Of a DNA stretch of 64,000 nt, positions 62,157 through 63,845 are shown piece by piece; the first letter of the stretch is position 1, and each line of letters opens with the position of its first letter. Origin of the DNA: Firmicutes bacterium ADurb.Bin248 (GTDB lineage: Bacteria > Bacillota > Clostridia > Christensenellales > CAG-138). The translations under genes and the position numbers were made by a program. The notes under the pieces are model-generated. The model saw only the letters and a program-made list of their open reading frames with translations, ran no database searches and was not told the origin of the DNA. Location: positions 21,636-85,635 of the forward strand of contig MWBW01000004.1 of NCBI GenBank assembly GCA_002069725.1, in the 5' to 3' direction.

Positions 62157-63845
62157 ATGCTCGAGCTGGAAGGAAAAACAGCCGTCGTCACCGGCGCTTC
62201 GCGCGGCATAGGCAGGGCCATCGCGCAGGCGCTTGCGGCCAAGGGCGCAAACGTCGCGCTCATCTACGCGGGCAACGAGGCCGCGGCGGAGGAGGCGCTC
62301 TCGCTCATCCGCTGCCAAAGCGCCGCGGGCGCGCGGGCGGAGGCTTACCGCTGCGACGTTTCGGACTATGCCGCGTCGAAGATCGCCGTAGAGCGGATCA
62401 TCGGCGATTTCGGCGGCCTGGACATACTCGTAAACAACGCCGGCATCACGCGCGACGCGCTGCTGCTCACCATGAAGGAGGCGGATTTCGACGCTGTGGT
62501 CGACACCAGCCTCAAGGGCGCGTTCAACATCGCCAACCGCGGCGAGATCGCCGTAAGGATCATACGCGCGTGCAAGGAGATGGGCATCTCCACCGTGGCC
62601 GTGTTCTCGGAGGCCGACCGCGACGCGCTGCATGTGAGCCTCGCGGACGAGAGCATCTGCATCGGCCCCGCGAGGGCGAAGGACAGTTACCTCAATATGT
62701 CCGCCATACTTTGCGCCGCGACCGTGACGGGCGCCGAGGCCATCCACCCGGGCTACGGCCTGCTCGCCGAGAACGCGCGCTTCGCCGGGCTCTGCCGCGA
62801 ATGCGGCGTGGCGTTCATAGGCCCCTCGGCCGAGGTGCTCGCCCGCATGGGCGACAAGAACGAAGCGCGGCGCGCGATGCGCGACGCGGGCGTGCCCGTC
62901 ATACCCGGAAGCTCCGTCGTCCCCACGCCGGAGGCGGCGCGGGAGGCGGCGCGGGAGGTCGGCTACCCGCTGCTCGTCAAGGCGCGCGCGGGCGGCGGCG
63001 GGCGCGGCATACGCCTCGTCGAATCCGAAGCGGAGCTCGAACACGCCTATCACGCGGCCTGCGCGGAGGCGCAAAGCGCGTTCGGCGACGGCGCGGTTTA
63101 CATCGAAAAATATCTGAACCCCGTCAAGCACATCGAGGTGCAGCTTCTGTGCGACCATCACGGCAATGTCGTGTGCCTGGGCGAGCGCGAATGCTCGGTG
63201 CAGCGCAGAAACCAGAAGCTCGTCGAGGAAAGCCCCTCCCCCGCCGTGACGCCGGAGCTTCGCAGCCGCCTGACGGAGGTCTGCGCCCGCGCGGCAAAGG
63301 CCGTGGGATACGCGAACGCGGGCACCATAGAGTTCCTGCTCGACCGGGACGGCAGCTTCTATTTCATGGAAATGAACACGCGGTTGCAGGTGGAGCACCC
63401 GGTCACCGAGATGGTCACGGGCGTCGACCTCGTCAAGTGGCAGATACGCGTGGCCGCGGGCCTTCCCCTGTCGTTCTCGCAGGAGGACATCGCGCTGCAG
63501 GGCTGCGCCATCGAGTGCCGCATCAACGCCGAAAACCCCGCGCTCGGCTTTTGCCCGTCCGGCGGCCGCGTGACCCTGCTGCACGTGCCGGGCGGGCCGT
63601 GGGTCAGGATGGACACCGCGCTGTATCAGGACTACGTCGTGCCGCCCTATTACGATTCCATGATCGCCAAGCTGATCGTGCACGCGAAAACGCGCGAGGA
63701 GGCCCTTCGCAAGATGCAGGCGGCGCTGTGCGAGCTTGTCATCGAGGGCGTGGCCCACAACGGCGAGCTGCAAATGGAGATCCTCTCCGACGAGCGGTTT
63801 TGCTCGGGCAGCTATACGACCGATTTTATGACCAAGCGAGGATAA
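62157..63845 (+). CDS. fabG'-'accC: chimeric ORF: N-terminal half of 3-oxoacyl-ACP reductase (FabG, residues 1-125) fused in frame to biotin carboxylase (AccC, from about residue 8), 562 aa
   Basis: [12 protein letters not shown] and [13 protein letters not shown] motifs are present, then ...[22 protein letters not shown]... at nt ~62531/62532. The remainder is a full ATP-grasp biotin carboxylase ([14 protein letters not shown]). The SDR catalytic Ser/Tyr/Lys region is absent. Confidence 0.85.
   Translation: [562 protein letters not shown]

Follow-up and report, generated by a model that had tools for sequence, protein, structure and literature searches.

A probable in-frame deletion from fabG to accC in a Clostridia fatty-acid synthesis cluster, carried alongside an intact allele of the same locus

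The fatty-acid synthesis locus of Firmicutes bacterium ADurb.Bin248 (Bacillota; Clostridia; Christensenellales; CAG-138) raises the question of whether a gene in which the first half of fabG runs straight into accC was made by deletion in the cell or by error during assembly, and what it would mean for its carriers if it is real. We studied this fusion gene, fabG'-'accC, within a stretch of 64,000 nucleotides (assembly GCA_002069725.1, contig MWBW01000004.1, positions 21,636 to 85,635 of the forward strand), the whole of which is referred to here as the window. The original prediction for this locus had named both a genuine deletion and an assembly collapse as explanations. The deletion is favored, because the junction is found in six assemblies and its two ends share 2 nt and no repeat. 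It is highly probable that this is a genuine in-frame deletion segregating alongside an intact allele of the same species, and that the fusion is the scar of a lost function in the synthesis of fatty acids by the type II system (FASII).

The fusion open reading frame (ORF) and its parts, in positions of the window, are the following.

62157 to 63845, forward strand: fusion ORF fabG'-'accC, 562 amino acids (from the ORF reading, Pfam and NCBIfam; the protein recurs on other contigs)
62157 to 62530, forward strand: 5' remnant of fabG, FabG residues 1-124, the NADPH-binding Rossmann half (from the match to intact FabG)
62529 to 62530, no strand: deletion junction, with the 2-nt microhomology AT common to both ends (from the alignment to the intact contig L011)
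62531 to 63845, forward strand: accC from codon 7/8 to its stop, without MFSKIL (from the match to intact AccC)

The claim of one uninterrupted frame of 562 codons was borne out by the ORF reading. The frame opens with an ATG that has a GGGAGG ribosome-binding site 5 nt before it, and an alternative TTG start at 62130 would give a product of 571 amino acids, a version that is absent from the protein collection. The exact 562-amino-acid protein is found on four further contigs, and a variant differing by one amino acid (P0130) on a fifth. The Pfam family adh_short matches amino acids 7-126 of the fusion with positions 1-116 of its 195 only, and the FabG models of NCBIfam match with their first ~120-145 positions only, at 108-113 bits for cut-offs of 296-332. 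These partial matches agree with the predicted Rossmann half of FabG lacking a catalytic region. The motifs that had been quoted are all present, and this half has the cofactor-binding TGxxxGxG motif (TGASRGIG, amino acids 12-19) and NNAG (amino acids 92-95). The ORF exits FabG after residue 124, and the catalytic Ser and the Tyr-x3-Lys are missing from it; in the intact FabG of the same species (251 amino acids), NITSVAG and YSAAK both lie 3' of the breakpoint. Over 125 amino acids the remnant is 99.2% identical to that intact protein. The remainder of the fusion is, as had also been predicted, a nearly full-length biotin carboxylase entered at about residue 8: Biotin_carb_N covers amino acids 125-228 with profile positions 7-110 of 110, CPSase_L_D2 (ATP-grasp) and Biotin_carb_C follow and are both complete, and the accC model TIGR00514 of NCBIfam matches from profile position 7 onward at 667.5 bits, for a cut-off of 626.5. 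The complete N-terminus of AccC is not kept. The fusion reads GAFNIANRG at this point and can be aligned with the biotin carboxylase of E. coli (1bnc) starting at residue 6/7, so that only the first beta-strand residues are gone, and from ANRGEIAV onward it is 100% identical to the AccC proteins P0126 and P0129 of the same species.

The intact form of the locus was found through the 90% identity cluster of the fusion protein, in which P0126 and P0129 are AccC members of normal length. Intact-type contigs are L011 (JGI 3300010344, contig Ga0116243_10000742), L012 (JGI 3300009715) and L013 (GCA_029553945.1), and the order at the same locus is fabD-fabG (251 amino acids)-fabF (413)-accB (143)-fabZ (142)-accC (444)-accD-accA-degV. 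The continuation that had been expected from other Firmicute clusters, fabG-fabF-accB-fabZ-accC-accD-accA, is thus present in the species itself, and the comparison of synteny with the closest genomes that had been proposed gave a direct result: L011 and L013 hold exactly the 3' half of fabG, fabF, accB, fabZ and the 5' codons of accC. Intact FabG (P0131) is found on seven contigs from seven samples. A sister species, at 87% nucleotide identity, is intact in five contigs (L006-L010), and among the matches listed the closest named relatives of AccC carry the labels Feifaniaceae, Clostridiaceae, Clostridium sp. and Solibaculum.

Alignment to L011, by blastn and by hand, places the breakpoint at 62530|62531, where position 62530 of the window corresponds to 6157 of L011 and position 62531 to 8786; the prediction of ~62531/62532 was within one base. 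The missing segment, L011 6158-8785, measures exactly 2,628 nt, equal to 876 codons, which substantiates and sharpens the earlier figure of roughly 2.5 kb lost in frame. It runs from the 3' half of fabG through the whole of fabF, accB and fabZ and the spacer between fabZ and accC to the opening codons of accC. At the breakpoint the intact FabG reads KGAFNMLKH. No direct repeat of at least 8 nt (8-nt seed) joins L011 ~6157 and ~8785, and no inverted repeats were found at the deletion ends and no recombinase nearby.

The flanks of the window and of L011 are 99.97-100% identical on both sides by blastn, and those of the window and L013 are 99.8-99.9% identical. L011 does not differ at any position from L002, a deleted contig that is 100% identical to the window, in 4.1 kb on the left side and 9 kb on the right. 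The intact contigs and the window share the upstream neighbors, a gene for a 1,711-amino-acid repeat protein and a LytTR two-component pair, and the intact and deleted loci share the downstream neighbors DUF4130, a radical SAM gene, a lexA-like gene, apbE and the rnf genes. Furthermore, L013 bears a GH94 gene remnant ~20 kb upstream, as does the window. Because L013 shares this remnant, we take the deleted and intact forms to be alleles of one locus and not paralogs. A paralogous second copy was also considered as the source of the two forms and was rejected, since a deleted contig of 191 kb and an intact contig of 76 kb share unique neighbors.

The assemblies that carry the identical junction, all of them with the deletion allele, are listed here.

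L002: GCA_022706965.1, contig of 191 kb
L003: ERZ2648042, assembled with SPAdes, 2.6x coverage
L004: ERZ22666056, assembled with MEGAHIT (k127), matching the window except at the contig end
L005: ERZ22666006, k141, from Copenhagen sewage by its record name, which contains 'CPH_Sewage'
L014: ERZ27239180, k141, its fusion protein differing at one amino acid (P0130)
L015: GCA_035367135.1

Could the junction nevertheless be a collapsed or chimeric join of fabG and accC, in a true genome that has the 2.6-kb segment? It is the case that L002 is a metagenome-assembled genome (MAG), that an intact allele with identical flanks exists, and that contigs of this species often break or become chimeric near the region (the foreign 5' end of L001, the start of L015 at the junction, and the ends of L098 and L099 within fabF). 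However, the ends share 2 nt only, with no repeat, far from the shared sequence of k-mer length that such a collapse would call for, and because of this a de Bruijn graph needs reads that contain the junction in order to join them. Moreover, the junction is not confined to one assembly. The single-nucleotide polymorphisms (SNPs) in the flanks of the deletion contigs number 0, 2, 5 and 16 relative to the window, plus noise in L003, so that at least four of the six assemblies are distinct sequences, and random chimeric reads would not hit the same base repeatedly. Because a junction at the same base recurs across SPAdes and MEGAHIT assemblies with different flanking SNPs, we reject misassembly, which is extremely improbable. 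In L015 the contig begins exactly 55 nt ahead of the first base that tells the alleles apart, which suggests a branch in a k=55 graph, with the deleted and intact alleles possibly occurring together in that sample.

Several contigs at this locus have features of assembly that deserve separate mention. In L001 (ERZ795058 NODE_1426), the first ~220 nt are a foreign accC 5' end of higher GC content; 24 of 66 nt differ from window positions 62540-62605, and from 62606 the two are near-identical (5 SNPs in the next ~9 kb). This start, which lies ~75 nt from the deletion junction, probably reflects a chimeric end of the contig or, conceivably, a real recombinant. The intact contigs L098 and L099, one from ENA (MEGAHIT) and one from JGI, both stop at position 7176, which is 360 nt inside fabF. 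A further three contigs, shorter ones, break off within the first 250 nt of this gene, and L012 begins close to its 3' end. This recurrent break in fabF could be caused by the conserved ketosynthase core that is shared with other species, or by strain variation. L003 (NODE_3913) has 19 single-base gaps over ~13 kb, which break fabH, accD, accA, degV and unrelated downstream genes. Decay of the fab and acc genes was considered for these frameshifts and rejected, given the 2.6x coverage and the 1-nt gaps in unrelated downstream genes as well, and they read as low-coverage assembly noise, not as pseudogenization.

The presence of both alleles, each of them common in public data, refines the original prediction in one respect: the deletion is evidently a polymorphism and not a fixed trait of the organism, because the intact allele circulates in near-identical strains. 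With regard to its origin, a single illegitimate recombination or replication slippage at the 2-nt microhomology would have joined fabG codon 124 to accC codon 7/8. The SNPs of the deletion carriers are mostly private, and the haplotype of the window and L002 is that of the intact L011. This fits one deletion event on a haplotype of the L011 type, after which the carriers diverged and underwent some recombination. For instance, the 16 SNPs of L014 are clustered, with four within 360 nt and five within 264 nt, and these clusters look like recombination tracts that may have been imported. In the carriers the upstream genes are unchanged and the products of accD, accA and degV have the same lengths. 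Because the remaining genes of the cluster have been kept, the event would be recent in evolutionary terms, yet it would be old enough to have spread to several samples.

A recurrent or programmed excision of the 2.6-kb segment at one site, either a hot spot or a reversible switch, would account for the same junction in another way. The flanks of the deleted window and the intact L011 are identical over 13 kb, the deletion is found on several slightly different haplotypes, and a deleted and an intact contig have one SNP in common, all of which such excision could produce. A switch or hot spot, however, is at odds with ends that have 2 nt of homology, no direct or inverted repeats and no recombinase nearby; the mostly private SNPs fit a single origin, and reversal would be impossible without a donor copy. 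We therefore regard recurrent excision as quite improbable.

The reading of a genuine deletion that arose once and cost its carriers FASII has the following points to set against it. The SNP just mentioned, 60509T, is common to the deleted L014 and the intact L013, and with 60509T in both alleles a single origin needs one recombination or one recurrent mutation. Both the support for the junction and the presence of the alleles are drawn from assembled contigs, not from reads. Some neighboring ENA accessions may share one study, in which case the independent sites are fewer than six. Finally, tblastn with the four intact proteins detected no further FabG, FabF, AccB or FabZ homolog in the 64-kb window, and this window is all that the search for paralogs of fabF, fabZ, accB and fabG covered.

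What the deletion would do to the cell depends on the genes around it. The rest of the cluster in the window is as follows.

58616 to 59077, forward strand: fabT-like regulator of the MarR family, with which the cluster opens (NCBIfam TransRegFabT, E=2e-36, short of the curated cut-off)
59078 to 60043, forward strand: fabH, ketoacyl-ACP synthase III (ACP, acyl carrier protein), intact (NCBIfam PRK09352, 374.8 bits, cut-off 249)
60070 to 60303, forward strand: acpP, acyl carrier protein, intact (NCBIfam E ~1e-14; Pfam PP-binding in L002)
60303 to 61247, forward strand: fabK, enoyl-ACP reductase II, intact (TIGR03151, 455.3 bits, cut-off 453.1)
61238 to 62155, forward strand: fabD, malonyl-CoA:ACP transacylase, intact (TIGR00128, E=2e-69)
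63849 to 64000, forward strand: 5' end of accD, cut by the end of the window (L002 carries the whole gene)

The upstream neighbors thus match those that had been named from the sequence, as judged by NCBIfam, and accD does follow directly at 63849, its start lying 3 nt past the stop codon of the fusion. The fabT-like MarR gene is found in all related loci. L002 continues with accD (TIGR00515, 343.6 bits, cut-off 317), accA and degV, a gene of the DegV family (TIGR00762, 220 bits, cut-off 99.7) that stays below the threshold of the FakB1 equivalog (110.7 bits, cut-off 350). Relative to the intact allele, essential FASII genes have been lost at the fab locus. The deletion takes the catalytic half of FabG, FabF (the one condensing enzyme for elongation that the cluster has), the FabZ dehydratase and the AccB carrier, and the remaining FabG fragment cannot act as a catalyst because Ser, Tyr and Lys are gone. 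With accB inside the deleted segment, the nearly complete AccC part has no neighboring gene for a biotin carboxyl carrier protein. The cluster could no longer elongate acyl chains or make malonyl-CoA, and on that account the fusion ORF would be a by-product and not a new enzyme. A scar is the most fitting description of the fusion protein, to judge from what its sequence has kept and lost.

One might argue instead that the fusion is functional, with half of FabG and a biotin carboxylase combined in a new or regulatory role and AccC-AccD-AccA using another carrier. The junction is in frame, the catalytic domains of AccC all score as complete, the ribosome-binding site is kept, as is the close distance to accD, and the lineage persists in several samples. 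An in-frame outcome, however, has a 1-in-3 chance of arising from any such event, a Rossmann fold that is truncated after about beta4 seldom folds, AccC is without its first beta-strand residues, and the cognate accB is deleted. In addition, the same architecture was not found among the 120 AccC and 120 FabG matches listed, and without fabF and fabZ malonyl-CoA would have no use in FASII. A new function of the fusion is, for these reasons, very improbable.

If the fusion is a scar, carriers would have to obtain fatty acids from outside. The DegV family includes the fatty-acid-binding FakB proteins, through which Firmicutes use exogenous fatty acids for making phospholipids. Carriers would live on exogenous fatty acids through a DegV/FakB-type route, and degV closes the operon. 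The scan of window ORFs turned up neither fakA nor pls genes. With the junction in frame, translation may continue into accD-accA-degV, which would possibly have aided the survival of the deletion. Fatty-acid auxotrophy of the carriers is plausible and somewhat more probable than not. More tentatively, a FASII-null lineage may persist and diversify in sewage and related communities beside siblings that are proficient in FASII, as a loss of the 'Black Queen' type in which lipids are supplied by the community, and the junction may perhaps be favored for the expression of a degV/fakB-like gene; we offer this as a possibility that is somewhat doubtful.

Other features of the window were also recorded. 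The GH94 (cellobiose-phosphorylase-type) gene remnant lies at 42344-43050 on the forward strand, where an ORF of 217 amino acids contains positions 1-112 of the 251 of the supersandwich domain followed by positions 1-73 of the 420 of the catalytic domain; the sequence continues in another frame and then reaches a stop. Unlike the fab deletion, this pseudogene occurs in 19 contigs from the species, the FASII-intact GCA_029553945.1 among them, and an intact version was not encountered, although none was searched for. The repeat protein of 1,711 amino acids is encoded at 51145-56280 on the forward strand and is of secreted type, with many Cys-rich repeats (GGxATCTEQAVCxVCGxxYG) and InlB B-repeat/Flg_new_2 domains. 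Its gene contains internal DNA repeats that are ~93% identical (52500-52930), and its length differs among assemblies (1,706, 1,711 and 1,586 amino acids). At 13200-15600, a block of genes has a weaker bias in GC content at third codon positions than the rest of the window and encodes an aminoglycoside/choline-kinase-like phosphotransferase (motif HTDIHGWN) together with a Nudix hydrolase and a pair of small proteins without an assigned function; this block is possibly an acquired island. Across window positions 1-64000, neither a tRNA gene nor a match to an Rfam family at the gathering threshold was found.

If carriers truly cannot make fatty acids, de novo lipid synthesis would be dispensable for a free-living environmental anaerobe, a point that bears on the debate over FASII as an antibiotic target in Firmicutes. 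The 30-mer across the junction (62516-62545) is a simple marker with which metagenomes could be searched for where and when lipid scavenging pays. The locus is also a worked example of how a true deletion can be told from MAG misassembly by means of public assemblies, through the length of the microhomology, the recurrence of the junction and contig ends at k-mer distance.

The cluster of the intact allele corresponds to the canonical Firmicute arrangement, as in Streptococcus pneumoniae: fabT-fabH-acpP-fabK-fabD-fabG-fabF-accB-fabZ-accC-accD-accA. The intact allele (L011, L013) and the sister species (L006-L010) share this exact order, with degV added. The window retains the first five genes and the last ones, but it is without the 2,628 nt from the interior of fabG to the start of accC and has no fabF, accB or fabZ.

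Losses of the fab operon within a species have been described. In Lactobacillus crispatus the operon is kept in 31.9% of genomes, and the others have lost it or carry an inactivating mutation in fabH; more generally, in host-adapted Lactobacillus, a fab operon that is lost or inactivated goes with fatty-acid auxotrophy, for which isotope tracing was used (bioRxiv 10.64898/2026.04.23.720460). The two cases have in common a polymorphism within the species for a working FASII operon, and in both the reliance on external fatty acids is an interpretation. They differ in that the lesion reported here is a single internal in-frame deletion that gave rise to a chimeric ORF, in uncultured Clostridia from sewage-type metagenomes, and in that isotope tracing was used there, whereas auxotrophy is a prediction from sequence here. 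In Staphylococcus aureus, FASII-bypass and fatty-acid-auxotrophic mutants have been described that subsist on fatty acids from their environment (Morvan et al. 2016, PMC5059476). The likeness is that Firmicutes can survive without FASII when fatty acids are present in the environment, and that loss-of-function mutants arise and persist; the difference is that in S. aureus, a pathogen, most of the mutants have point mutations for which FASII inhibitors selected, whereas a multigene deletion segregates here in environmental populations under no known drug selection. Natural loss of the fab operon is already known, and what is new in the present case is the lineage, the type of lesion and the habitat outside a host, and not a new kind of system.

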